Source: Candidatus Onthoplasma sp.
GTDB lineage: Bacteria; Bacillota; Clostridia; Christensenellales; UBA1242
Direction: 5' to 3'
DNA length: 64,000 nt
NCBI GenBank assembly: GCA_045633705.1
Contig: JAZQYV010000010.1
Location: 129,669 to 193,668, forward strand
Below the pieces are notes generated by a model. That model was not told the DNA's origin and searched no databases. It worked only from the letters and a program-made list of their open reading frames with translations. A program made the translations under genes and the position numbers. Below are positions 6,888 through 53,685 of this stretch, piece by piece. Position 1 is the stretch's first letter; each line of letters begins with the position of its first letter.

Positions 6888-7085
6888 CTATGATAGAAAA
6901 TTTGTTTGTGTAGATACAATTACGGTTAAATGCATGCTATACACAAATAAAAACACTAAAAGTTGCTTAAAATATAATAAAAATGCAACTTTTTTTAATA
7001 TCTTGACAAAAATTGTCAAAAATTATTTGTGTTTTGATTTAAAAAATGTTAAGATTAAGTATATAACAATTTTTAAGGGGTAAAT

Positions 7086-28206: not shown

Positions 28207-31200
28207 ATGGAAGAAGTAAAAAGTAAAATTGTGGTTGGCGGAGAAACTACTAAAAAGGGGATTAAAAGTAGTGCATATCAACAAATAAAAGCTGATAATG
28301 CCACACATATTAAGGCAGTTACTAAAACTGTAGTTGATAAAGAAACCGGCAAGCCTAAATCTATTGTAACAAATGAATTTATTGAAATAAAAGATACTAT
28401 GCGATTTATTAGAGTAAGGATAAACTCAGAAACAGGCTCTCCTGTTGGTAAGGGCGAACTTATTCATTATACAGAAATTAAGCCAGATAAAAACTACAAA
28501 TATCAATGCGTTGATGGTGAAATTTTGTATATGATTGAATCTTTGATGTTTAGCAAAGTGTCTTTTATGCGCAATGATCCAAGCCCCAAATCAACACATT
28601 ATAAGTGTGCTGATGGTGTGTATGTTAGAAAAGACGAAGTCCAAGTTCCAGCATACAAGATTGTGGATATGCCTATTGGGCACAACCTAATCCAAGACAC
28701 AATTCATAATAATAAGCATTACGTAGAAATGGCTAAAATAGAAGTTGATGGTAAGGTGATGGAGGTTGCAAGCGATTTTGTCAAATCCCAAGGCGACAAG
28801 CATTATTGGTATCACAAGGACAAGCATGGTAAGGAAGTAAGGCAGGAATGCGACCGCATTGGTGTAGAGAAGAAGTATGTAAACTATGTTATGGTTGATG
28901 GTAAAACTGTTGTTAAATTAGATAAGTTAACTGCTGATTCAAATGGTGAATATGTTGTTGATTTAGGTGAAAAGGGCAAGGTTTCGGTTGCAAAAACTGA
29001 AATTGATGTTAAGGGCTTGTTTGTTGAGGGAGCTGCAGTTGGTGCAACTAGAGAAATAAAGGCAAATCCTACTAATAAAGATGTCGCAACGGATATAAAC
29101 AACGCTACATTTGTTTTTGATAAAAAGAAAGGCATAACAAGGATAATTGCCAACAAAAATGATGGCTATGCGGTTGTTGTTACTGGTTTAGGTAAGGATT
29201 CGCATTATGAGATTATACTTAAGCACAACACAATTAGGTTGGAAGATGTTTTAGCAAGGTTAGAAGCTTGGTCAAAATCCAACAAAGACTATCAATTTAA
29301 TCGTCACACTAAAGACAGCTTTAATGTTAGAAGAGTTGAAAAGTTTGAAATAATTGATGCCGCGGAAGAAGGTATAAAGATTGTTTATCCTGAAATGGGT
29401 GAAAAGGCATTGGCTGAAGATGTTAAAGTTAAAGATGGTCAAGTTATTGCTTGTACTTTAAGTGGCAAACAGTTAACAGATATTAAGTGGTCTGATGACC
29501 TAGACTTCCCACGCATAGAGGAATATACGATAGATGGGGTGACCATATCTAATATTGAGTGGACAGGAGAAAAGATTGGCAGTTGTGTGGTTTCATTTAA
29601 AGATGAAAATGGAGAATCGAGAATTGTTAATCTTAAGGGAACTGAACTTGAAAAGTCAGCCTACAATGCATATGCTATTAGAAATAGTAAAAACGTACAG
29701 GTTAGAGATTTAAAAATTGATTCTACCGAAACTGAGCAAACCACACTTTCATTTAAAATTGGTGATTACACAATTACCAAAGCTGAATATGATATTACCA
29801 ATAAAAATATAGGCAAATGCGTGGTTCAACATAAGAATGGGCCTGAGCAGGTTATTGATTTAAGTGTAGACCCAAGATTCAAGCATTTGCAAATGGCTAT
29901 TCAAGTTTCGCTTGATGCTGACAGAGTTAAACCATTGTTGGAATCAAGATTGGTTGAAAAGAAAGATGGCAAGTATGAAAAGGTGGCAGACGTTGTTCAA
30001 ACCGGTCCAATAGAAAGTAATGGCACTGCTAGTGCAGAAAAATTGGATAGTCTTGAACAGGCTGTTAAAGCGCAAGAGGAATTTACGGAGAAGCCTTACC
30101 CAACCTGGACTATAGATTCCAAAGGCAAAATTCATCAAGTTGATGATGTTAAAAATTCTTATAGTGGCGAATCTGAGTTTGAGTGTGAAGTTGATTATTT
30201 TAAAAACCTAATCGGTAAGGACAAGATAGAAGTTAAAAAGGGTAAAATAGTAATTGACCCTAAAGCTGGAAATGAGCGTAGGAACAATCAATTATTTGTG
30301 GGTCTTGCATTATGTTCAAACTTTTTAACAATGCCAATAGGATTATGTATTTTAGGTGCTGGCATTGTAACAGCAATAGCTGAACCCATCAGAAGGGCAA
30401 TAAAAGAAAGAAGGCTTAACAATTTGACTGTTGAAAAAGTTATGGCAAAAACTAGAGAAAAAGTTAAAGCTCAATGCCAAAAGAATATTAAGAAGCTAGA
30501 AAAAGAATTTCGAAGAAAGGTGGCTTGGGGCAAAAAGAATATGAGCTCGGAAGCCTTCAGGGAATACCAAGAAAGGGCAAGCGCGGAATTTATGACCAAA
30601 ATGTCGGCAGAGGCTACTAAGATGAGTATTTATGGCGAAGGGGCTTTGGCATGCAATTTTGATTTAGGAAAGAAAACTAAGTTAACCTCTGAAAATATGC
30701 TTGGTTGGATTGCTGGCAATAATAAAAAGAGAGAGCTTGTTGAAGGTAAAAAGCCTAGTTCAAAATTTAAGTCTGCATGGAAAACTAGAGTCATTTCTGC
30801 AGAAACTGGAAAACATACTGAAAAAATAACTGCTGAGAATGTGCAAGAAGCGGTTGCTGTGTTAGAGTCGCTTGGAGGTAGAAAAGAACATATTAAGGCA
30901 TATAAGTTGCGAATGAAACATGCTGATGTTTTTAGAATGAGTGACAAGAACTTTACAGATGCAAACCGCCCAGATTTGGAAGCTTATAAAATGGAGATGA
31001 GGGCTGATTATTATAGAAGTGTGGCAGAAGACGGATGGGCAAGCATTGATGACAAGGTTGATGCATTTAAGAGAAGTGAGGAATTTACACAATATACAAC
31101 AGCTAAGGAACGCAAGGAAGCCATAGAAGGCAAAAGGTCAGAATTGACCAAGAAAGCAAATTCTACCAAAGTTACTGGAGCTGAATTTGGGGAGGTTGAA

Positions 31201-32316
31201 GACAAAAATGGTAATTTGATGTCTGATGTATATGGCCAAAAAATTATGAATAAAGCAGCTCAAACTGTTAGCAAAGTTCTTAATACAGAATTAAATGCAG
31301 AAGAAGAGGTTTATGGCACCACATTGGCAGAACAAGTTTGTCATGTGGCTGGTGGCTCAAATGTGCGTAGATTGCGTCATGATGCAATGATTGCGCAATC
31401 TGAATTTGAACAAGTTAAAGACCAACAGCAAAATATTGACAATGAAATTATGTCAATAAAGGATAGATCGGCGATTGCTATAAAGCAAGGAAATTATGAA
31501 TTGGCATATATGTTACAAACAGAAATTAAGTCTAAAGAGCAACAATATAAAGATGAGCTTGCTAGAAGCAAAAAGAATATTGAGGGAAGACTTTATGGAG
31601 AATTGACTTCAGGGCAGGGCGGAGATTTGTCAAAACGTTTGGATAAGTTAATGGTCGTTAGCAGGACAATTGACAAGAGATTGCAGACTGCAAAAGAAGT
31701 GGCGCAAAGAGAGCATGAAAGAAGAGTTAAATTGTGGGCGAGTGAGGAATTTGTGTCAAAACACTCAAAAGAATTTAACGATTATGTAGACGATTTGCGC
31801 AAAAAGGCTCCAAATTTAAATTTTGATAATGAAAATGTTGTTCGTGGGGTGGTGGCATCATTTACTTCAAATATGTTAAGTAAAGAAATTAATGCAAATG
31901 ACGACCAAAGAGAAATTTATCAAGAACAAATGGATATGCTCATGGTTAAGCATAACATTGAGGAAAATGTAGCAGCGCAAGCCTACTGTGAAGATGCTGA
32001 TGTTAAGGCTAAATATGAAGAATATTGTGCAAAAAACCCAAGCTTAAAGCCTGAAGAGGCTAGATTGTGGTTCTATGCAAAGCGCAAGCGTGAAGATGCC
32101 GTGGCTGTTGATAAATTTAAAAAGGCCAATAAGGACAAGCTTGAAGAATGTGCTGTTAAGCGCCTTGAAGAAGGTAAGCTTAAAGAGCATCAAAAGAAAG
32201 ATAGAAAACTTAAATTGATTAAGGGGAAAAGCAAAGAAACAAATGCAACGGCTAAAGTGTCAGCAACTGCTGCTCCCGTCGCAGCTCCTGCACATGAAAT
32301 TGGTCACACTGCATAA
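28207..32316 (+). CDS. giant orphan protein (1369 aa) with a central hydrophobic hairpin
   Basis: Uninterrupted 4.1-kb ORF with AGGAG SD, its own promoter and terminator. No signal peptide. Hydrophobic segment at about aa 696-727. K/E-rich helical C-terminal half. No domain recognised. Confidence 0.85.
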   Translation: MEEVKSKIVVGGETTKKGIKSSAYQQIKADNATHIKAVTKTVVDKETGKPKSIVTNEFIEIKDTMRFIRVRINSETGSPVGKGELIHYTEIKPDKNYKYQCVDGEILYMIESLMFSKVSFMRNDPSPKSTHYKCADGVYVRKDEVQVPAYKIVDMPIGHNLIQDTIHNNKHYVEMAKIEVDGKVMEVASDFVKSQGDKHYWYHKDKHGKEVRQECDRIGVEKKYVNYVMVDGKTVVKLDKLTADSNGEYVVDLGEKGKVSVAKTEIDVKGLFVEGAAVGATREIKANPTNKDVATDINNATFVFDKKKGITRIIANKNDGYAVVVTGLGKDSHYEIILKHNTIRLEDVLARLEAWSKSNKDYQFNRHTKDSFNVRRVEKFEIIDAAEEGIKIVYPEMGEKALAEDVKVKDGQVIACTLSGKQLTDIKWSDDLDFPRIEEYTIDGVTISNIEWTGEKIGSCVVSFKDENGESRIVNLKGTELEKSAYNAYAIRNSKNVQVRDLKIDSTETEQTTLSFKIGDYTITKAEYDITNKNIGKCVVQHKNGPEQVIDLSVDPRFKHLQMAIQVSLDADRVKPLLESRLVEKKDGKYEKVADVVQTGPIESNGTASAEKLDSLEQAVKAQEEFTEKPYPTWTIDSKGKIHQVDDVKNSYSGESEFECEVDYFKNLIGKDKIEVKKGKIVIDPKAGNERRNNQLFVGLALCSNFLTMPIGLCILGAGIVTAIAEPIRRAIKERRLNNLTVEKVMAKTREKVKAQCQKNIKKLEKEFRRKVAWGKKNMSSEAFREYQERASAEFMTKMSAEATKMSIYGEGALACNFDLGKKTKLTSENMLGWIAGNNKKRELVEGKKPSSKFKSAWKTRVISAETGKHTEKITAENVQEAVAVLESLGGRKEHIKAYKLRMKHADVFRMSDKNFTDANRPDLEAYKMEMRADYYRSVAEDGWASIDDKVDAFKRSEEFTQYTTAKERKEAIEGKRSELTKKANSTKVTGAEFGEVEDKNGNLMSDVYGQKIMNKAAQTVSKVLNTELNAEEEVYGTTLAEQVCHVAGGSNVRRLRHDAMIAQSEFEQVKDQQQNIDNEIMSIKDRSAIAIKQGNYELAYMLQTEIKSKEQQYKDELARSKKNIEGRLYGELTSGQGGDLSKRLDKLMVVSRTIDKRLQTAKEVAQREHERRVKLWASEEFVSKHSKEFNDYVDDLRKKAPNLNFDNENVVRGVVASFTSNMLSKEINANDDQREIYQEQMDMLMVKHNIEENVAAQAYCEDADVKAKYEEYCAKNPSLKPEEARLWFYAKRKREDAVAVDKFKKANKDKLEECAVKRLEEGKLKEHQKKDRKLKLIKGKSKETNATAKVSATAAPVAAPAHEIGHTA

Positions 32317-32431: not shown

Positions 32432-32986
32432 ATGAAAAATATTTTTCGTAAACTTTTAGTTTTGGGGTTGGTAACTGTATCAGTTGTTGGTTTGAATGCA
32501 TGTGGAGCAAATAAAGATGATGAAAATAAGTTTTATATAGACGGACTTGAAACCGCATATGAACTGGCTGAAGAGTTTGTTGTAGTTGGTAAAACTTTGA
32601 ATATTACACTCAAAGATGGGACAACCAAAGAAGTTGTGGTAACCGAAGAAATGGTTAAACAAACCATCGATATGTTAAGTATTGGCGAACAAACGCTTAT
32701 TATTGAATATGAAGGTGTTGAATATAGATTTGTGGTTGAAATTGTAGATACTGTTGTTAGCTATAGTTTTGATGGTCAGATGGAGTATTTTGTTGACGAT
32801 AAATTTGATATCAGTATGATTTATATGAATGTTGAATGGAAAGGCGGCTTAAGTGAGATAATACAACTTAAAGAGAGTATGTTAGTTGTTGCTCCTGACA
32901 TGAGATATGCTGGAAACAAGACAATAACAATTGAATTTAAAGGAAAAGAATATCAGTTTTCGATAAGGGTTAATTCAAATAATTAA
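32432..32986 (+). CDS. lipoprotein with two beta-rich (Ig-like-looking) repeats
   Basis: Signal peptide ending in the lipobox-like LNAC. Repeated ..TLIIEYEGVEYRFVVEIV / ..KTITIEFKGKEYQFSIRV. Confidence 0.75.
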   Translation: MKNIFRKLLVLGLVTVSVVGLNACGANKDDENKFYIDGLETAYELAEEFVVVGKTLNITLKDGTTKEVVVTEEMVKQTIDMLSIGEQTLIIEYEGVEYRFVVEIVDTVVSYSFDGQMEYFVDDKFDISMIYMNVEWKGGLSEIIQLKESMLVVAPDMRYAGNKTITIEFKGKEYQFSIRVNSNN

Positions 32987-35151: not shown

Positions 35152-35262
35152 AGTTGAGGATAAAAATAAAATACGTGATAAAAAGCACACAATTATTGCA
35201 GGATATTATATTTGCTTTGTGAATTACGTGTTTTTAATTCGTGCGAAATTTGTCGAAAATAG

Positions 35263-35291
35263 TTTACTTTTAAGTATACGTTGTGTATAAT
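35263..35291 (+). promoter_or_regulatory. promoter of the Rho-like gene (leaderless geometry)
   Basis: TTTACT, 17-nt spacer, TATAAT, 6 nt, then the ATG at 35298. No SD. Confidence 0.5.
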
Positions 35292-35297
35292 ATGGTT

Positions 35298-36566
35298 ATG
35301 AAGAAGAGTAATAACCGCAACTTGAAAAGTTTAAAAAATATTAATAAGGTTAGGCAGATTGATGGATTTAGTCTATATCCTTTTTCGGTTGGAGATGTTT
35401 CAGATAAACGTAAATTTACTGATAAAGATTTAGAGGGTATACAACTTTTAACAGACCAAGAGGTTATTAATGCTAGTTTATTTGATTATTCGCTAGAAGA
35501 AAGTTTGGGCAATGAATATGCTTTGATGGATAGTGGAGTGTTAAGAAATGTTCTTACTGGAGAAGATTTAGGTATTTATAATTATGGTGCTATAACTTCA
35601 CAAGTTGACAAGGATGATATATTTGATACTAAATATGAGGGCGAGATTGATGAGTGCTGCATGTTGGCAGAAGACGACCCATTGATGGGGACGGAGACGG
35701 AAATTATTCATACTATTAGAGGATATTTGGAAGTTTGTTTACCCAGCAGTGAATTTAGTATTATTCGCAAAAATGTATTTGATAGCAAAGATGAAAATTG
35801 CGTTGTTTTTATTCCTCAAGGGTATGTAAAAAAATACCAGTTACGTAACGGTGATGAGATTGTTTGCAGTTATATAAAAGATAATGACAAATTTTTATTG
35901 GATTCATTGTTTACAATCAATGGAGTATATTATAAAGAATGGGAGTGTAATCGTCCATTTATTTACGAATTAAGTGCAGAGCATAAACCAGATTTGATTC
36001 CTGCGGAAGGGCGTTATTTGGGGGTTGTTGCTAAAAAATATGGTTTATACCAAGGCGATGGTGTATTTGTGTATATCAATAAAAATACATTAAAAGCAAC
36101 AGTTGCCAATAATTTAATACAAGAGCTTGCTCAACTGTGTGACAAGGTGGTATATATAAATCCTCAAGCAAGACCTTCTGATTGTATTGATGAAGGATAT
36201 AATATTGCAAAGTTTTGTATTTCGGCAAGTGAGAGCTCAAGAAATCAGAGACTTATTGCCTTGCTTGGCGCAAATTATGCTAAAAGAATGGTGGAGTTAG
36301 GACACAGCGTGATGTTGATTGTTGATGACATTAACAACATCTTGGCTCTTGATGAAAAGTTTGATGGAGAAATACCAACTTGCAAGACAATATTATCTAC
36401 AGCTTTGGCAACTAACCATGGTTCGGCAACATCGTTTGCATTGTCTCCTTTGCGTTTTGATACAATTAAGGAAAATCCATTGCAAAACATATTAGGTTGC
36501 TTTGAAGATTTGGGGATAGTTATTGATAATGGTGAAGTTGATTTATACAATAGTTACCGAGCATAA
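35298..36566 (+). CDS. divergent Rho-like protein with a degenerate Walker A motif. Start uncertain (35283, 35292 or 35298).
   Basis: By-eye colinearity with E. coli Rho from the OB/CSD region (IPQGYVKKYQLRNGDEIV vs [18 protein letters not shown]) through the RecA-like core (AKRMVELGHSVMLIVDD vs [17 protein letters not shown]). The P-loop is INKNTLKAT where Rho has PPKAGKT. Confidence 0.6.
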   Translation: MKKSNNRNLKSLKNINKVRQIDGFSLYPFSVGDVSDKRKFTDKDLEGIQLLTDQEVINASLFDYSLEESLGNEYALMDSGVLRNVLTGEDLGIYNYGAITSQVDKDDIFDTKYEGEIDECCMLAEDDPLMGTETEIIHTIRGYLEVCLPSSEFSIIRKNVFDSKDENCVVFIPQGYVKKYQLRNGDEIVCSYIKDNDKFLLDSLFTINGVYYKEWECNRPFIYELSAEHKPDLIPAEGRYLGVVAKKYGLYQGDGVFVYINKNTLKATVANNLIQELAQLCDKVVYINPQARPSDCIDEGYNIAKFCISASESSRNQRLIALLGANYAKRMVELGHSVMLIVDDINNILALDEKFDGEIPTCKTILSTALATNHGSATSFALSPLRFDTIKENPLQNILGCFEDLGIVIDNGEVDLYNSYRA

Positions 36567-36759
36567 AATTAAATAAAAGATGTAAAAGATTAAGGTGGCG
36601 ACATCTTAATTTTTTGTCAAATTATATGTTTTTATAATTTTAATGACTACTTAGATATGCTAAAGTGAGAGAATTGTGGGATTTGTTTGAGTTTAGTTAT
36701 TAAAATTTCTTTACTAAAATTTAATTTAGTGGTATACTATACTGGTAGAGAGGTATATT

Positions 36760-38127
36760 ATGAAATTAACAATGGACAAAATTGTAAATTTATGTAAAAC
36801 TAGGGGTTTTGTTTTCCCTGGTAGTGACGTTTATGGCGGATTTGCCAACACTTGGGATTTTGGCCCTATTGGTGTAGAACTTAAGAACAATATTAAGCGC
36901 GCTTGGTGGAAGCGTTTTGTGCAAGAAGCGGACAATAGCTTTGGTGTTGATGCCGCAATACTTATGAATCCGCGTGTATGGGATGCAAGCGGGCACACGG
37001 CTAGTTTTAGCGACCCTAAAATGGATTGTAAAAATTGTAAAACTCGTCATCGTGCCGATAATATTATTGAAAATTATAAGGGTTGTGATGTTGTGCCAGA
37101 CCAAATGACAAACGAAGAAATGGAACAATACATTGCAAAGCATGAAATTAAGTGTCCAAATTGTGGTAAGTGTGATTGGACGCCAATTAGAACATTTAAT
37201 TTAATGTTTGAAACAAGTAGAGGAACGGTGGCTGGCGAAAAAGATGTGGTTTATCTTCGTCCTGAAACTGCGCAAGGTGAGTATGTAAACTTCCTTAATG
37301 TTCAACGTACAGCTAGAGCAAAGGTGCCATTTGGTATTGCTCAAATTGGTAAAAGCTTTAGAAATGAGATTACTCCAGGCAACTTCTTGTTTAGAACTGT
37401 AGAATTTGAACAAATGGAACATCAACTTTTCTGTAAAGCTGAAAATGCTTTTGAACATTATGATGAATATAAAAAATTTGCATGGGATTTTGTAGTAGAG
37501 CTAGGATTAAACCCAGAACACTTACGTTTCCATGACCATGATAAGCTTGCACACTATGCAAAGGCAGCGTGTGACATTCAATACTTATTTCCAATCGGTT
37601 GGCAAGAGCTTAATGGCATTCATCATCGTTCTGACTGGGATTTATCTCGCCATGAAGAGTTTAGTGGTAAGAGTATGCAATATCTTGACCCTGTTACCAA
37701 TGAAAAGTACACCCCGAATGTTGTAGAATATTCAATTGGTGCAGACCGACTAACTTTGGCTTTGATGTGTGAAGCTTATGATGAAGAAGAATTAGAAGGC
37801 GGCGACACACGTGTTGTAATGCACTTGCATCCTGCAATTGCGCCATACAAGGTGGCGGTGTTACCACTTCAAAAGAATTTAAATGAAAAAGCTAAGGAAG
37901 TATTAAAGAAGTTGAACAAATATTTTATGTGTAGTTATGATGAGGCTGGTAGTATTGGTAAACGCTATCGTCGTCAAGATGAAATTGGTACACCTTTCTG
38001 TGTAACAATTGACTTTGATACTTTGGAAGACAACACTGTTACAATTCGTGATAGGGATAGTATGGAGCAGATTAGACTTCCAATTGATAAACTTGTTGAA
38101 TATGTGTCTGAAAAGGTAATGTTTTAA
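36760..38127 (+). CDS. glyQS: glycine--tRNA ligase (single-chain class II)
   Basis: 455 aa. N-terminus ..LCKTRGFVFPGSDVYGG.ANTWDFGP.G, plus FRNEITPGNF.FRT.EFEQME. Confidence 0.95.
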   Translation: MKLTMDKIVNLCKTRGFVFPGSDVYGGFANTWDFGPIGVELKNNIKRAWWKRFVQEADNSFGVDAAILMNPRVWDASGHTASFSDPKMDCKNCKTRHRADNIIENYKGCDVVPDQMTNEEMEQYIAKHEIKCPNCGKCDWTPIRTFNLMFETSRGTVAGEKDVVYLRPETAQGEYVNFLNVQRTARAKVPFGIAQIGKSFRNEITPGNFLFRTVEFEQMEHQLFCKAENAFEHYDEYKKFAWDFVVELGLNPEHLRFHDHDKLAHYAKAACDIQYLFPIGWQELNGIHHRSDWDLSRHEEFSGKSMQYLDPVTNEKYTPNVVEYSIGADRLTLALMCEAYDEEELEGGDTRVVMHLHPAIAPYKVAVLPLQKNLNEKAKEVLKKLNKYFMCSYDEAGSIGKRYRRQDEIGTPFCVTIDFDTLEDNTVTIRDRDSMEQIRLPIDKLVEYVSEKVMF

Positions 38128-38222: not shown

Positions 38223-39341
38223 ATGGGTTTATTTGGATTTGTAAAAAAACAAATGTTGGAGGTTTTGGAATGGAAAGATGATTCTAAAGACATTTTAGTT
38301 TATCGTCACCCAATGCAAAATCGTGAAGAGATTATGAACAGTTCTACACTTGTAGTACGAGAATCTCAAGTTGCATTATTTGTGCATAAGGGGCAAATTG
38401 CAGATGTGTTTGGACCTGGCACATATAAGCTAAACACTGAAAATATTCCGTTCTTGACAAAATTATTGTCATTGCCTACGGGATTTAATAGTAGAATTAA
38501 AGCCGAAGTATATTTTATTAACACTAAACAATTTATGGGACAAAAGTGGGGAACTCAAAATCCTATTATGATGAGAGATGCGGATTTTGGTTCTATCCGT
38601 CTTCGTGGGTTTGGTACGTTTAGTTATAAGGTTAATGATGCCAAGATATTTATGAAGGAAGTTTTTGGAACAAACCCTGTTTATAGAGTAGAAGATTTGA
38701 CAATTCAATGTAGGGCCATTTTACTATCTAATATAAGTGATGCAATTGCAGAAGCCAAGCTTCCAGCTTTGGATTTGGCGGCAAACTATAAGGAAATCGG
38801 CCAACAAATTGTTAGTGTATCGCAAGATGAATTTAATAAGATTGGTTTAAAGTTATGCAAAGTTACGGTTGAAAACTTATCTCTTCCTGAAGAAGTTGAA
38901 AAGGCTCTTGATGAACGTAGTAAACTTGGAATTCTTGGTGATAAAATGGGAACATATGCTCAATATCAGGCGGCAACAGCAATGCGTGATGCGGCCAACA
39001 ATCCAAATGGAGGGAATATGGCTGGCATTGGTGTTGGTCTTGGTGCTGGTGCGACCATGGGCAATTTGTTTTCAAATAGCATTGCAAATGTTAAAGATGA
39101 GGCGCCAAAACGCACATGTATAAAATGCGGCGCTGGAATTTCCCCAAGAGTTAAGTTCTGTCCTGAATGTGGTTCTAGCCAAACCGAAACATGTCCTAAG
39201 TGTGGAGAAGCTGTGCACAAAGGAAGCAAGTTCTGTACTAATTGTGGTGAAAAGTTAGTAAAGGAAAAGACATGTCCTAAATGTGAAAAAGTTCTTAAAG
39301 CTTCATCAAAGTTCTGCCCTGATTGTGGAGAAAAAGTTTAA
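38223..39341 (+). CDS. SPFH-domain protein with C-terminal zinc ribbons (COG4260 / B. subtilis YdjI-like)
   Basis: N-terminus MGLFGFVKKQ..EVLEW.D......VYRHP, an SPFH-like core, a Gly-rich linker, then four CxxC pairs (CIKCG..CPECG..CPKCG..CTNCG..CPKCE..CPDCG). Confidence 0.78.
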   Translation: MGLFGFVKKQMLEVLEWKDDSKDILVYRHPMQNREEIMNSSTLVVRESQVALFVHKGQIADVFGPGTYKLNTENIPFLTKLLSLPTGFNSRIKAEVYFINTKQFMGQKWGTQNPIMMRDADFGSIRLRGFGTFSYKVNDAKIFMKEVFGTNPVYRVEDLTIQCRAILLSNISDAIAEAKLPALDLAANYKEIGQQIVSVSQDEFNKIGLKLCKVTVENLSLPEEVEKALDERSKLGILGDKMGTYAQYQAATAMRDAANNPNGGNMAGIGVGLGAGATMGNLFSNSIANVKDEAPKRTCIKCGAGISPRVKFCPECGSSQTETCPKCGEAVHKGSKFCTNCGEKLVKEKTCPKCEKVLKASSKFCPDCGEKV

Positions 39342-39403
39342 TAAAATAGATGATTATTATATAGTTACAATCATCTATTGGAAGATATGTAAAGGAGAAA
39401 GTT

Positions 39404-39874
39404 ATGAAAAAAATTGATAAAAATGCTTATCAAGAAAAAAGATATGATAAAGGACATTTGATGATTGTTGGGCTAGTTGTTGCGGTGTTGGCATTAGCCT
39501 TGATAATTGGTGGAGTTGTTTTATTTATTAAAGGAATTAAGGTTGATGGTGTTTGGTCAACAATTTGGCGCATTATGCTAAGTGCCGTTATGTTATTGTT
39601 AGGTTTACCATTTGCATATGTTGCCTTTATGATGATGGTAACTGCAAATTCTATGATTAGTGTTAAAGATGGTAATGTGAGTGACGTTGGCAATAGCGCT
39701 GTTGGAACAGTTAATATCAACAAATGTCCTAAATGTGGTGAAAAGCTTGAAGATGCGGCGGAGTTTTGCCACAAGTGCGGAGCAGAAGTTGAAAGTGTAA
39801 TTAAATGCTCTTGTGGATATAAAAACAAGGCTGATGCAGAGCACTGCATAAAATGTGGCAAAAATTTGAAATAA
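39404..39874 (+). CDS. membrane protein (2 TM) with two C-terminal zinc ribbons
   Basis: Two hydrophobic helices, then CPKCG..CHKCG and CSCG..CIKCG. Confidence 0.7.
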   Translation: MKKIDKNAYQEKRYDKGHLMIVGLVVAVLALALIIGGVVLFIKGIKVDGVWSTIWRIMLSAVMLLLGLPFAYVAFMMMVTANSMISVKDGNVSDVGNSAVGTVNINKCPKCGEKLEDAAEFCHKCGAEVESVIKCSCGYKNKADAEHCIKCGKNLK

Positions 39875-52389: not shown

Positions 52390-52398
52390 TGGTATAAT
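52390..52398 (+). promoter_or_regulatory. extended -10 element of rarA (leaderless geometry)
   Basis: TGgTATAAT, then 6 nt, then the ATG at 52405. No SD. Confidence 0.5.
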
Positions 52399-52404
52399 AT
52401 GGGT

Positions 52405-53685
52405 ATGAATATATTTGATATTAATAAGAACAATGCTCCACTTGCGGAACGAATGAGACCTACAACCCTTGATGAATTTGTTGGGCAAAAACATATTGTA
52501 GGCGAGGACACATTATTAAGACGTGCTATTAAGATTAACAGGCTGGGTAGTTGTATTTTTTATGGGCCTCCAGGAGTGGGGAAGACTACGCTAGCGTTTA
52601 TTATTGCCAATGCAATGCATGAGGATTTTAGAAAGCTTAATGCTGTGTCATCCGGTGTGGCTGATGCAAAGAAGATTATTGATGAGGCTAAAACAAATTT
52701 TGAGTTGTATGGCAAGTCTACGATATTAATACTGGACGAATGTCATCGATGGAGCAAAGCGCAAAGTGATTGTGTGCTTGAGGCGGTGGAAAAGGGATAT
52801 ATTACATTTATTGGTTCTACCACCGAAAATCCACACGTGAGTATGACACCAGCTATTGTTAGCCGATGTCGAGTGTTTAAATTTTTGCCACTAGAACTTG
52901 CCGATATTAAAGATGCACTGCTTAATGCAATCAATGATAAGGAACGTGGTTTTGGGCGTATTAAAATCGAAATTGAACCCAAAGCATTGAACCATATTGC
53001 GTATGCAAGCAGTGGTGATTTGCGTAATGCTATGAATGCTTTAGAACTTGCAGTGCTTACAACTGGGATTAATGGCGACAGAATTGTTATTGATGAAAAA
53101 GTAGCTGAACAATGCATACAACAAAAAGCAATTAGTGTTGATGAAAATATGTATTATGATCTACTTAGTTGTTTTTGCAAAAGTATTAGAGGAAGTGATA
53201 CTGAAGCGGCACTTTATTATAGTCAACGTTTGATTAATGCGGGTTGTGACCCCTTGCTAATTGCTCGAAGATTGATTGCGCATGCCAGCGAAGATATAGG
53301 TATGGCAGATAGCAATGCATTGCTGCTTGCGGTATCAGCACATTACACACTTAAAAACTTAGGCATACCTGAAGGTAATCTTGCGCTAAGCCATGCGATT
53401 ATTTATGCTTGTGAGGCTGAAAAATCTAATAGTGTGTATGTTGCAATGGGCAAGGCAAATACAGATGCGACAATGTTTGCAGATGATAAAATACCAGAAT
53501 ATCTTAAAAATCATCATTATGATACTGAAAATCCAACACCATACAAGTATCCTCACGATTATGGCGGTTATGTTGAACAACAATATATGCCCAATAGCTT
53601 AAAAGATAGAGTGTATTATACTCCTAGCCAAAATGGACGAGAGAAAAACTTAGCGCGTAAAAAGGATAAGTTTAAAAAGAAATAA
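52405..53685 (+). CDS. rarA: replication-associated recombination protein A (AAA+ ATPase)
   Basis: ..PLAERMRPTTLDEFVGQ.H..G.., Walker A GPPGVGKTT, DECHRW. Confidence 0.9.
   Translation: MNIFDINKNNAPLAERMRPTTLDEFVGQKHIVGEDTLLRRAIKINRLGSCIFYGPPGVGKTTLAFIIANAMHEDFRKLNAVSSGVADAKKIIDEAKTNFELYGKSTILILDECHRWSKAQSDCVLEAVEKGYITFIGSTTENPHVSMTPAIVSRCRVFKFLPLELADIKDALLNAINDKERGFGRIKIEIEPKALNHIAYASSGDLRNAMNALELAVLTTGINGDRIVIDEKVAEQCIQQKAISVDENMYYDLLSCFCKSIRGSDTEAALYYSQRLINAGCDPLLIARRLIAHASEDIGMADSNALLLAVSAHYTLKNLGIPEGNLALSHAIIYACEAEKSNSVYVAMGKANTDATMFADDKIPEYLKNHHYDTENPTPYKYPHDYGGYVEQQYMPNSLKDRVYYTPSQNGREKNLARKKDKFKKK

Follow-up and report, generated by a model that had tools for sequence, protein, structure and literature searches.

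Rho is a textbook example of an RNA translocase that forms a ring. The window, that is, the whole 64-kb stretch of DNA analyzed here, encodes a protein in which a preliminary description had read a Rho-type fold whose P-loop is destroyed, and two options were left for it: an extremely divergent housekeeping Rho, or a new RNA-binding regulator derived from Rho. The question raised by this locus is which of the two such a protein could be. It was named RhoL here, for the Rho-like protein encoded at 35298..36566 (Table 1).

Gene and Coordinates

The longest ORF started at a GTG codon at 35283 and ended at 36566 on the + strand (427 aa), and the database entry for the window protein (P0001) started at ATG 35292 (424 aa). 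We place the true start at ATG 35298 (MKKSNN..., 422 aa), because the codons just upstream of it (Y-N, TAT AAT) form a conserved -10 box and not protein. The start at 35263 given previously did not fall on a codon; the -35 hexamer begins at this position. All residue numbers below follow the 427-aa numbering from GTG 35283.

Table 1. Features of the rhoL locus in window coordinates.
Feature	Position	Strand	Remarks
Conserved upstream element TGTCGAAAA	35251..35259	+	Spacing to the -35 box constant across 8 genomes
-35 hexamer TTTACT	35263..35268	+	Promoter scan; TTTACT/TTTACA in 8/8 tier-1 loci
-10 hexamer TATAAT	35286..35291	+	6 nt 5' of ATG
RhoL coding sequence (start as placed here)	35298..36566	+	422 aa plus stop; purifying selection in relatives
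Basic N-terminal tail	35298..35390	+	Family median charge ~+7, pI ~11; low pLDDT
Family-specific acidic region	35391..35702	+	Median charge ~-18, pI 4.1; in place of the Rho N-terminal helical bundle
OB-fold domain, homologue of the Rho primary RNA-binding domain	35703..35957	+	PF07497 at aa 146-215; alignments
Connector, OB domain to RecA-type core	35958..36056	+	Colinear with Rho residues ~127-170
RecA/F1-type core, Rho ATPase domain homologue	36057..36563	+	No motor motifs; ends at the Arg-finger position
Degenerate Walker A	36075..36098	+	INKNTLKA vs. Rho APPKAGKT
YINPQA vs. Rho LIDERP	36153..36170	+	D210->N, catalytic E211->P, Arg valve R212->Q
Walker B-like strand LIVDD	36315..36329	+	D348 = Rho D265
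C-terminal end N-S-Y-R-A plus stop	36549..36566	+	R426 0-2 alignment positions from Rho R366
Terminator-like hairpin, then U-run	36581..36618	+	3' of stop; RNA fold -14.9 kcal/mol

Homology to Rho

Sequence profiles and an AlphaFold model both identified RhoL aa ~140-427 as homologous to Rho. The Pfam Rho_RNA_bind model (PF07497) matched the window protein at aa 146-215 with E = 1.7e-5 and 25 bits, where the gathering cut-off is 27, and the same assignment was precomputed in databases for most RhoL relatives. The NCBIfam Rho model gave E = 2e-6, and a phmmer search against PDB returned Thermus Rho (E = 3.9e-5, RhoL aa 137-354). The signal became stronger with family profiles: a profile built from 19 relatives matched the Rho structure 3l0o in PDB with E = 6e-9, and hhalign of the RhoL family against canonical Rho gave 98.8%, E = 9e-17 over 229 columns.

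In the AlphaFold2 monomer model, aa 140-427 mostly had pLDDT values of 85-95. Among the PDB matches that Foldseek listed for this model, the best 50 were Rho without exception (E = 1e-15 to 5e-12), spanning ~300-330 aligned columns, and the identity in the structural alignments was 14-18%. The Pfam search found no sequence match to PF00006 in the window protein; the RecA/F1-type core fold was nevertheless present, with aa 259-427 mostly at pLDDT 85-95 and matched by Foldseek to Rho chains at E = 1e-15. The colinearity with Rho that had been read by eye from about aa 150 to the C-terminus was borne out by the alignments. The scores against curated Rho models were far below their cut-offs: 18.6 vs. 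509 bits for TIGR00767, 26.8 vs. 315 bits for NF006886, and 17 vs. 628 bits for the Rho2 short-form model NF041509.

Domain Organization

The domain order of OB-fold, connector and RecA/F1-type core was the same as in Rho. The OB-fold domain carried the motifs GYLEV..FSIIR, VFIP, YQLRNGDEI, and TING. Family-wide residues were counted in 38 unique RhoL relatives, with the E. coli Rho sequence used for numbering being identical to PDB 1pv4. The equivalents of the RNA-contact residues F62, R66, and Y80 were mostly retained in this family: R162 (Rho R66) was kept in 34 of the 38, and 33 had Tyr or Phe where Rho has Y80. Neither the cytosine-reading D78 nor the E108/Y110 pocket was conserved.

The N-terminal part was of a different kind. 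Residues 1-138 were modeled with low pLDDT, except for aa ~78-100, which were modeled confidently. The acidic region contained the conserved motifs GD.S..F[TS]..DL, GNIY.LMDEGVL....TGADLGIYNY, and C.LAE. In a Pfam search with E values up to 10, no family matched the N-terminal 140 aa, Rho_N (PF07498) included, and the RhoL N-terminus did not align with Rho_N as it occurs in the sister groups described below. This agreed with the view in the preliminary description that the first ~145 aa are unrelated to the Rho helical bundle. A profile search with the N-terminal region returned only two RhoL family members or fragments and no other proteins, and in an exhaustive search for relatives the region was never seen joined to other domains.

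Loss of the Motor Motifs

The alignments agreed with the pairing of APPKAGKT in Rho with INKNTLKA in RhoL proposed earlier, in which the G-K-T triad reads L-K-A. The loop between strand and helix retained the length of a P-loop. At the G183 position a bulky residue was found instead of Gly, which occurred in none of the 38 unique relatives; Lys was kept at the K184 position (RhoL K271) in 34/38, and Ser or Thr occurred at the T185 position in just 8/38. A motif scan for GxxxxGK[ST] found no intact Walker A elsewhere in the window protein.

The earlier pairing also held for the catalytic Glu segment, where LIDERPEE of Rho lines up with YINPQA. Asn replaced D210 in 36/38 relatives and Pro replaced E211 in 33/38, with an acidic residue in none, and Arg was never found at the R212 position. 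The YINPQ segment was shifted by hhalign, at odds with HMMER and MAFFT; the placement by the latter two was adopted because it fits the strand at 288-296 (KVVYINPQA) in the model. LLDS of Rho paired with IVDD, whose D348 was Asp in all 38 relatives. The Q-loop region corresponded to a gap of 16-25 residues in the RhoL family, and the R-loop TGSKMD had no conserved counterpart.

RhoL stopped one residue after R426, and the Rho C-terminal helical subdomain was absent. The truncation described before was therefore present, with the end at NSYRA 0-2 residues from R366, but it removed ~53 residues and not ~60. S424 and R426 were invariant (38/38). R426 could be the equivalent of the Arg finger R366, an assignment that is uncertain by 1-2 alignment positions.

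As judged from the alignments, the loss of the motor elements is fixed family-wide, and only the Lys, the Walker B Asp and the C-terminal Arg remain. Since the motifs were missing in the orthologues as well, a local sequencing error does not account for their loss. The profiles, the structure model and family conservation supported the core of the preliminary description, namely that the P-loop of a Rho-type fold has been destroyed here and that the protein probably does not hydrolyze ATP.

Family, Sister Groups and Locus

The hosts of the RhoL family were gut Clostridia of low GC content, all of them uncultured, among them Candidatus Onthoplasma and related MAGs titled "Clostridia bacterium", and RhoL was shown to be confined to this one clade. 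A scan of JGI metagenomes with the family patterns yielded nothing that was confirmed by tblastn. Clustered at 50% identity, intact ORFs of similar length from independent assemblies fell into more than 35 clusters, and 44 columns were invariant among 19 RhoL sequences.

Two sister groups were found, tier 2 (~390 aa, e.g., P0040, P0043-P0046) and tier 3 (~350 aa, e.g., P0054, P0072), both matched by the RhoL family profile in hhalign (E = 1e-45). In the Clostridia MAGs that encode them, their annotation is "hypothetical protein". Like RhoL, they had an OB domain and a degenerate RecA core without Walker A. Unlike RhoL, they retained a well-conserved Rho_N domain, followed by K-Q-G-R-P-P-K, and had lost the Walker Lys as well. 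Tier 2 ended in SYR[RK], as RhoL ends in SYR, and tier 3 stopped before the SYR motif.

These sister groups, ATPase-dead too, occupied the same chromosomal position as RhoL, near glyQS, rplI, and the rubrerythrin gene. The window and the tier-3 loci L010 and L018 had the gene next to glyQS, with rplI close by; in the tier-1 loci L004 and L011, the tier-2 locus L007 and the tier-3 locus L016, genes for rubrerythrin and a cation ATPase were located near it. Tier-3 genes also adjoined a PemK/MazF toxin gene. RhoL was thereby shown to be vertically inherited at one locus. A conserved operon was considered and rejected: the immediate neighbors varied among genomes, and the synteny was of a looser kind (glyQS, rplI, rubrerythrin, cation ATPase).

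Selection and Evolutionary Rate

The dN/dS ratio was 0.13 at a dS of 0.54 between L019 and L020, and 0.056 between L010 and L018. The RhoL gene is real and under purifying selection, and a pseudogene or sequencing error was ruled out by these ratios together with the family-wide conservation.

Between the window and L003, RhoL was 38% identical; five of the syntenic neighbors (GAPDH, RarA, rubrerythrin, MscL, trigger factor, ClpP) showed 81-98% identity, and three small neighbors just 42-53%. Between L004 and L011, RhoL was 47% identical whereas its neighbors reached 82-94%. The window and the tier-3 locus L010 shared 78% identity in GlyRS, with no RhoL match above the BLAST filter. By these sequence comparisons, RhoL is evolving several-fold faster than the neighboring housekeeping genes and at a rate far above that of canonical Rho.

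Promoter and Terminator

The promoter scan found TTTACT and TATAAT separated by 17 nt, with 10 of 12 matches. The arrangement TATAAT-N6/7-ATG was shared by the window, L001, L002, L003, L004, L006, L011, and the tier-2 locus L007. This layout, from which the transcription start was inferred, predicts a leaderless RhoL mRNA, and the TATAAT upstream of the ATG gives rise to the "YN" pseudo-residues in over-extended database gene models.

In relatives, TGTCGAAAA was the last of two or three TTGTC(A/G)AAAA copies with a spacing of 10-11 bp. The RhoL proteins of the eight genomes that share its placement were just 36-49% identical. The 9-mer was not enriched within the 64-kb window, so its weight lies in positional conservation across genomes only; it could be a UP-like or operator-like element. 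Downstream of the gene, the hairpin had z = -4.3 and none of 200 shuffles was equally stable, and it was not flagged by a simple terminator scan. RhoL is a stand-alone unit, with its own conserved promoter, a predicted leaderless mRNA, and its own terminator hairpin.

Possible Function of RhoL

The best explanation, which we hold with slightly better than even confidence, is that RhoL descends from Rho and binds RNA without being a motor. With regard to the two options posed at the outset, a non-motor derivative is favored: as the catalytic Glu, Arg valve, Q-loop, and R-loop have all been lost, the evidence speaks against a motor that still works. Judged by sequence and model, RhoL would have neither translocase nor helicase activity. 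Most likely, it binds RNA (or single-stranded nucleic acid) independently of ATP hydrolysis, and the binding is predicted to go through the partly conserved primary cleft with the equivalents of F62, R66, and Y80. RhoL is probably still oligomeric; in the model, K271, D348, and R426 appear at the former inter-subunit nucleotide pocket, where they could make subunit contacts or hold a phosphate-bearing ligand. RhoL would influence transcription or the fate of RNA by occupancy (e.g., blocking, protecting, or tethering RNA) and not by motor action. Several observations stand against this explanation: the primary RNA-binding cleft was retained in part only (D78 and E108/Y110 were lost), the high evolutionary rate is also compatible with a conflict-related role, and the purine bias of the window, described below, may point to a canonical Rho through which RhoL acts.

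Tentatively, the housekeeping rho itself may have become motor-less across the clade, with no canonical Rho left and with RhoL and its sister groups doing an ATP-independent transcription or RNA job, as a case of recurrent motor loss. Such proteins might, for example, bind nascent RNA and RNA polymerase and promote or block termination without translocation.

It is rather unlikely that RhoL is a paralogue beside a canonical Rho encoded elsewhere and acts through Rho as a built-in antagonist or regulator, in mixed rings or by competition for rut-like RNA or RNA polymerase, damping or redirecting Rho-dependent termination. Duplication is the usual origin of pseudoenzymes, most Clostridia are thought to carry rho, and the interface-facing K271, D348, and R426 were invariant or nearly so, all of which would suit a paralogue. 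In addition, the window had a strong purine bias on the sense strand (57.0% for genes on the + strand, 53.6% for those on the - strand). Such a bias has been linked to active Rho (PMC13323073), which suggested that a canonical Rho may exist elsewhere in the genome, with RhoL acting through it. Moreira et al. (PMC11347177) report that 30% of Bacillota are without functional Rho and name Streptococci as the example. Against the paralogue, tblastn with E. coli Rho found no canonical rho in the 64-kb window, and in six GTDB-genome loci (~105 kb, a small genome sample) tblastn matched RhoL alone. A precise fit into a Rho ring is also doubtful with the Q-loop, R-loop, and C-terminal subdomain lost and an identity of 14-18%. 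Finally, the well-conserved Rho_N of the sister groups at the same locus makes the gene look like the original rho degenerating in place.

A role in conflict would account for the rapid divergence of RhoL relative to most flanking housekeeping genes; RhoL might, for example, be a decoy for, or a sensor of, phage proteins directed against Rho or RNA polymerase, and the PemK/MazF toxin gene beside the tier-3 genes points the same way. We consider it improbable: dN/dS was well below 1, the gene was single-copy at a conserved housekeeping locus outside any defense island, RhoL matched none of the PADLOC and PHROGs models, and IMG/VR contained no relative that was found. With these searches empty, a phage, mobile or defense origin was rejected.

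Still less probable is that RhoL is the working termination factor of the organism, an extremely divergent Rho that hydrolyzes NTP through an unorthodox P-loop. The P-loop length, the Lys and the Walker B Asp were retained, a C-terminal Arg lies near the Arg-finger position, and RhoL would be the sole Rho homologue if the genome lacks a canonical rho. However, the catalytic Glu was replaced by Pro and the Arg valve was lost, a bulky residue took the place of the P-loop Gly and the Mg-binding Thr was unconserved, and the RNA-gripping pore loops (Q-loop and R-loop) were gone. The scores, 17-27 bits where the curated Rho models require 315-628 bits, and a rate of evolution far above that of canonical Rho also speak against it.

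A functionless, decaying rho remnant or an assembly or sequencing artefact, which the lost catalytic motifs and fast divergence might suggest, is effectively refuted by the intact ORFs in more than 35 clusters from independent assemblies, the 44 columns invariant in 19 sequences, the dN/dS of 0.06-0.13, and the conserved promoter.

Comparison with Known Systems

With E. coli Rho (PDB 1PV4/3ICE), RhoL shares the OB domain, the connector, and the RecA/F1-type core, and it retains equivalents of F62, R66, Y80, the Walker A Lys, and the Walker B Asp. It differs in having the basic tail and acidic region where Rho has the N-terminal helical bundle, and in being without the P-loop Gly and Thr, catalytic Glu, Arg valve, Q-loop, R-loop, and the last ~53 residues. 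The alpha subunit of F1-ATPase is non-catalytic, has an intact P-loop, binds nucleotide, and partners the catalytic beta subunit. The idea shared with RhoL is a RecA/F1-type fold and interface without catalysis, but RhoL lacks a canonical P-loop and is not known to have a partner.

The short "Group B" Rho retains the catalytic residues and the bicyclomycin pocket, according to Moreira et al. (2024, PMC11347177). The "Group B" Rho/Rho2 short form (NF041509; Actinomycetota, PVC group) and RhoL are both without the canonical N-terminal domain; however, RhoL keeps none of the catalytic set, belongs to a different host phylum, and scores 17 bits where 628 are required. In recent surveys, the Rho ATPase domain is described as highly conserved in those Rho factors that are classed as functional, and others are set aside as "Rho-like sequences", with one Rho domain, or with N-terminal and RNA-binding domains, and the ATPase domain undetected (PMC11347177). 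RhoL and its sister groups fit this bin as worded there, Rho_RNA_bind and/or Rho_N being matched and the ATPase model unmatched; in the window protein, Rho_RNA_bind alone was detected, with Pfam models and not the HMMs of Moreira et al. The bin rests by definition on a failed HMM match, whereas the ATPase fold of RhoL is present, catalytically stripped, conserved, syntenic, and under selection. In the literature search, no paper joined Rho with a pseudo-ATPase or pseudoenzyme, and the nearest was the "Rho-like" category of PMC11347177. RhoL belongs to a large group of motor-dead Rho proteins that had no description in the literature searched.

As the example of RhoL illustrates, proteins binned as "Rho-like" can be neither fragments nor pseudogenes. 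In RhoL, the full Rho scaffold is under purifying selection at a conserved locus, with the catalytic and RNA-threading elements removed and a new N-terminal module added. The respective shares of allosteric and mechanical action of Rho on RNA polymerase have been debated for a long time. If RhoL-type proteins are the sole Rho homologues in their genomes, they would point to a motor-independent function of the Rho scaffold and would bear on this debate; if a canonical Rho coexists, they are candidate endogenous termination regulators. They also alter the scoring of Rho as present or absent in comparative genomics of Bacillota, and experiments can draw on them as naturally occurring Rho variants with a dead motor. 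Similar degenerate Rho motors, apparently independent, were also seen in other Clostridia MAG lineages.

Homology of RhoL to Rho

The protein RhoL was Rho-like well beyond chance. Matches of the single sequence were borderline, namely Pfam Rho_RNA_bind (E 1.7e-5, aa 146–215), the NCBIfam Rho model (E 2e-6) and Thermus Rho in the PDB (E 3.9e-5, aa 137–354). The profile built from 19 relatives (alignment A1) matched Rho structures at E 6e-9 and aligned over 229 columns with a canonical Rho profile (probability 98.8%, E 9e-17). The AlphaFold2 model built on A1 was confident for aa 140–427, and the best 50 PDB matches listed by Foldseek were all Rho chains (E 1e-15 to 5e-12, ~300–330 aligned columns, 13–18% identity). 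The Rho homology claimed in the preliminary description was thus borne out by both profile–profile and structural comparison. RhoL consists of a Rho-derived OB domain and a RecA-type scaffold.

State of the Motor and RNA-Binding Residues

Motor residues were scored on a MAFFT alignment with canonical Clostridia Rho and E. coli Rho (identical to PDB 1pv4 and used for numbering), together with HMMER alignments, and the counts cover 38 unique RhoL family members. All hydrolysis and RNA-threading elements were absent from RhoL. Walker A, APPKAGKT in E. coli Rho, reads INKNTLKA in the window; its Gly position was never Gly among the relatives (Q in 24/38), its Mg-binding Thr position was S/T in only 8/38, and its Lys was kept in 34/38. 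The catalytic strand LIDERP reads YINPQA, where the D210 position was N in 36/38, the catalytic E211 position was P in 33/38 and never acidic, and the R212 (Arg valve) position was never Arg. The Q-loop of E. coli Rho fell in a gap of 16–25 residues, found in all five MAFFT-aligned sequences of tier 1 (the RhoL family proper). The R-loop (TGSKMD) had no counterpart in RhoL of the window and was not conserved across the relatives. The Walker B Asp (D265 in E. coli, D348 in RhoL) was present in all 38. Rho runs ~53 residues past its Arg finger R366, and this last part was missing from RhoL, which ends in N-S-Y-R-A; S424 and R426 were invariant (38/38), and R426 lay 0–2 alignment positions from R366. 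A Lys/Asp/C-terminal Arg set was conserved at the former nucleotide pocket. No GxxxxGK[ST] was found anywhere else in RhoL of the window. The residue-level observations first made by eye were right in every point checked, and the reading drawn from them, a Rho-like protein with a destroyed P-loop and probably no ATP hydrolysis, was supported; the finding is real.

The OB cleft was partly conserved. The equivalents of F62, R66 and Y80 were F/Y in 32/38, R in 34/38 and Y/F in 33/38 relatives, respectively; that of F64 was usually aliphatic, and those of D78, E108 and Y110 were not conserved.

Residues 1–140 gave no match in Pfam and did not align with Rho_N from the closest relatives, and most of this region except aa ~78–100 was modeled with low confidence. 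Throughout the family it comprised a basic tail (median charge ~+7) and then a strongly acidic stretch of ~100 residues (median charge ~−18, pI 4.1) with the conserved motifs GNIY.LMDEGVL....TGADLGIYNY and C.LAE. Neither the exhaustive HMMER search nor an N-terminal profile search found this module joined to other domains.

Relatives, Locus, and Rate of Evolution

The exhaustive HMMER search, run on 1.84 billion representatives, gave 79 matches, including ~36 close relatives of 415–460 aa (tier 1). The sister groups, tier 2 (~390 aa; e.g., P0040, P0043–P0046) and tier 3 (~350 aa; e.g., P0054, P0072), had a well-conserved Rho_N, then K-Q-G-R-P-P-K, the OB domain and a core as degenerate as that of tier 1, with the Walker Lys also lost; tier 2 ended in SYR[RK]. 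Tier 1 aligned with tiers 2 and 3 at E 1e-45, and canonical Rho was reached only at E ~1e-4 in the single-sequence search. The motif K-[TS]-K-Q-G-R-P-P-K, nearly invariant right after Rho_N in tiers 2 and 3 (alignment A4; ~52–60 of P0054), resembled an AT-hook, and a looser R-G-A-P-x-K stood at the same place in some canonical or near-canonical Clostridia homologues of the set.

Every named member was annotated as "hypothetical protein" in a "Clostridia bacterium" MAG. Among GTDB species representatives, tier 1 was found in six genomes: three of Candidatus Onthoplasma sp., which NCBI classes in Christensenellales, and three "Clostridia bacterium" MAGs, of which two came from roe-deer rectum. 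In the window and at tier-3 loci L010 and L018 the gene preceded glyQS, and rplI was close by; it lay near rubrerythrin and a cation ATPase in tier-1 L004 and L011 and tier-2 L007, and near rubrerythrin alone in tier-3 L016. Their shared chromosomal neighborhood makes the three tiers positional orthologues in related organisms. Two genes, one of 63 aa and one for a PemK/MazF-type toxin, stood directly before the RhoL gene in tier-3 genomes; this putative toxin–antitoxin pair was absent from the window.

Housekeeping neighbors diverged far more slowly than RhoL. Between the window and L003, RhoL was 38% identical, compared with 81–98% for GAPDH, RarA, rubrerythrin, MscL, trigger factor and ClpP and 42–53% for three small neighbors. 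The corresponding values were 47% against 82–94% for L004 and L011, and 40% against 63–93% for L005 and L011; GlyRS was 78% identical between the window and tier-3 L010. The RhoL gene is under purifying selection: dN/dS was 0.13 at dS 0.54 in a close tier-1 pair and 0.056 in a tier-3 pair with dS near saturation, where dN was ~3.7 times that of GlyRS. RhoL is therefore a constrained yet fast-evolving gene. This selection and the family-wide conservation ruled out a pseudogene or a sequencing error.

Motor Loss in Other Clostridia Rho Homologues

In the same MAFFT alignment, other Clostridia MAG homologues had motors destroyed in differing ways. P0171 and P0167 had lost Walker A and kept IDERPE and the Arg finger; P0088 was full-length in scaffold but had A in place of both K184 and E211; P0075, P0085, and P0089 were degenerate in further ways; and P0169, P0172, P0175, P0181, P0189, P0194, P0210, P0214, and P0223 were C-terminally truncated. 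Canonical Clostridia MAG Rho (P0180, P0186, P0197, and others) had all motifs intact. Thus, as far as the alignment indicates, the motor seems to have been lost repeatedly in uncultured Clostridia with the scaffold kept. Point replacement of Lys, Glu and Arg was seen in some of these homologues.

RhoL matters less as a single gene than for revealing a radiation of motor-dead Rho in gut Clostridia, which is sizeable, conserved and fast-evolving and occupies an ancestral-looking locus.

Proposed Function and Known Systems

RhoL is very probably a non-catalytic Rho derivative; a specific non-motor RNA-binding mechanism is proposed only tentatively. Such a protein would be unable to translocate on RNA. 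Its partly conserved OB cleft, helped by the basic tail, would most likely bind RNA or single-stranded nucleic acid; the protein would probably still oligomerize through the old inter-subunit interface and would act by occupancy rather than motor work. We speculated that the acidic region might bring in a partner or cover the binding cleft. No phage, mobile or defense signature of RhoL was found.

Rho itself is the closest known family, and RhoL lacks most of its defining features. According to one survey, the short Group B/Rho2 paralogues, like RhoL, lack the N-terminal domain but, unlike RhoL, keep the catalytic residues (PMC11347177); RhoL scored 17 bits against their model (cut-off 628). 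RhoL would belong to the "Rho-like sequences," which have no detectable ATPase domain and were set aside with a supplement-only description (Moreira et al., 2024, PMC11347177). Our literature search found no paper on a Rho-derived pseudo-ATPase.

Two explanations were considered for the relation to canonical rho, which was found neither in the 64-kb window nor in the six GTDB-genome loci (~105 kb), a small sample of these genomes. The first is that a canonical Rho may be encoded elsewhere; pseudoenzymes usually arise after duplication, and purine bias on the sense strand was strong in the window genes (57.0% on the + strand, 47 kb; 53.6% on the − strand, 6.7 kb). Such bias has been attributed to avoidance of Rho and is much weaker in rho-less Bacilli (PMC13323073); the window values exceeded those of B. 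subtilis (54%/53%; PMC13323073). The other is that rho itself may have degenerated in place, giving RhoL; Rho_N is still canonical in the sister tiers, whose genes occupy this locus, and many Bacillota lineages are without a functional Rho (30% in PMC11347177). The finding would be weightier if no Rho homologues other than RhoL-type proteins occurred in these genomes.

Gene Structure and Other Features of the Window

The RhoL gene was flanked by sodC and glyQS; rplI and tRNA-Asn lay a short way upstream. Comparison of the 5′ regions of eight related genomes showed a strikingly conserved promoter in the order TGTCGAAAA, 4 nt, TTTACT, 17 nt, TATAAT, 6–7 nt, ATG. The "Y-N" residues, which several over-extended models place two codons before Met, result from in-frame reading of the TATAAT box, and the start was therefore placed at the ATG after this box. 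The database protein P0001, identical to the window protein, begins at ATG 35292, and the start at 35263 proposed in the preliminary description coincides with base 1 of the −35 hexamer. A spacing of only six bases between the −10 box and the ATG predicts a leaderless mRNA. A stable hairpin and U-run follow the stop, so the gene looks like a stand-alone transcription unit.

Directly upstream of the −35 box, the eight genomes carried two or three copies of TTGTC(A/G)AAAA at 10–11 bp spacing. This non-coding stretch was still recognizably conserved though the RhoL proteins were only 36–49% identical, and it could serve as a regulator site, as a UP-like element or as extra −35-like boxes. A pair resembling these copies preceded ORF 7086. 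The TATAAT–6 nt–ATG layout recurred at other window genes, suggesting that this organism may make leaderless mRNAs fairly often.

Coordinates of features in the window and in tier-3 loci
Feature	Position	Strand	Remarks
RhoL ORF, longest form	35283 (GTG) to stop 36564–36566	+	427 aa; origin of residue numbers
RhoL start as placed	35298 (ATG)	+	MKKSNN..., 422 aa
TTGTC(A/G)AAAA copies	35240–35259		also in L001–L006, L011
Pair upstream of ORF 7086	7000–7022		
Hairpin, then U-run	36581–36618		15 nt after RhoL stop; −14.9 kcal/mol, z = −4.3
TATAAT–6 nt–ATG, rarA/mgsA	52393–52407	+	ATG 52405
TATAAT–6 nt–ATG, HTH regulator	11725–11711	−	ATG 11713
TATAAT–6 nt–ATG, two short ORFs	19742; 27443	−; −	
glyQS	36760–38127		
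Gap upstream of glyQS	36567–36759		193 nt
Promoter-like site in gap	36710–36738		
1369-aa ORF	28207–32316	+	
Big_3 domain protein	32432–32986	+	
SPFH/Band-7–zinc-ribbon protein	38223–39874	+	
63-aa gene and PemK/MazF-type gene	L010 200–738; L016 7365–7903; L017 2848–3386; L018 8361–8899		tier 3

In many Firmicutes glyQS is under T-box control; in the short gap upstream of glyQS, no T-box riboswitch matched Rfam at the gathering threshold. The 1369-aa ORF had no Pfam match and was followed by a small bacterial Ig-like (Big_3) protein, and this locus may encode a lineage-specific surface protein. Very large LRR/Flg_new repeat proteins adjoined RhoL in related loci L011 and L019. Directly downstream of glyQS, an SPFH/Band-7 protein was fused to multiple zinc ribbons, and a second, small zinc-ribbon protein followed it.
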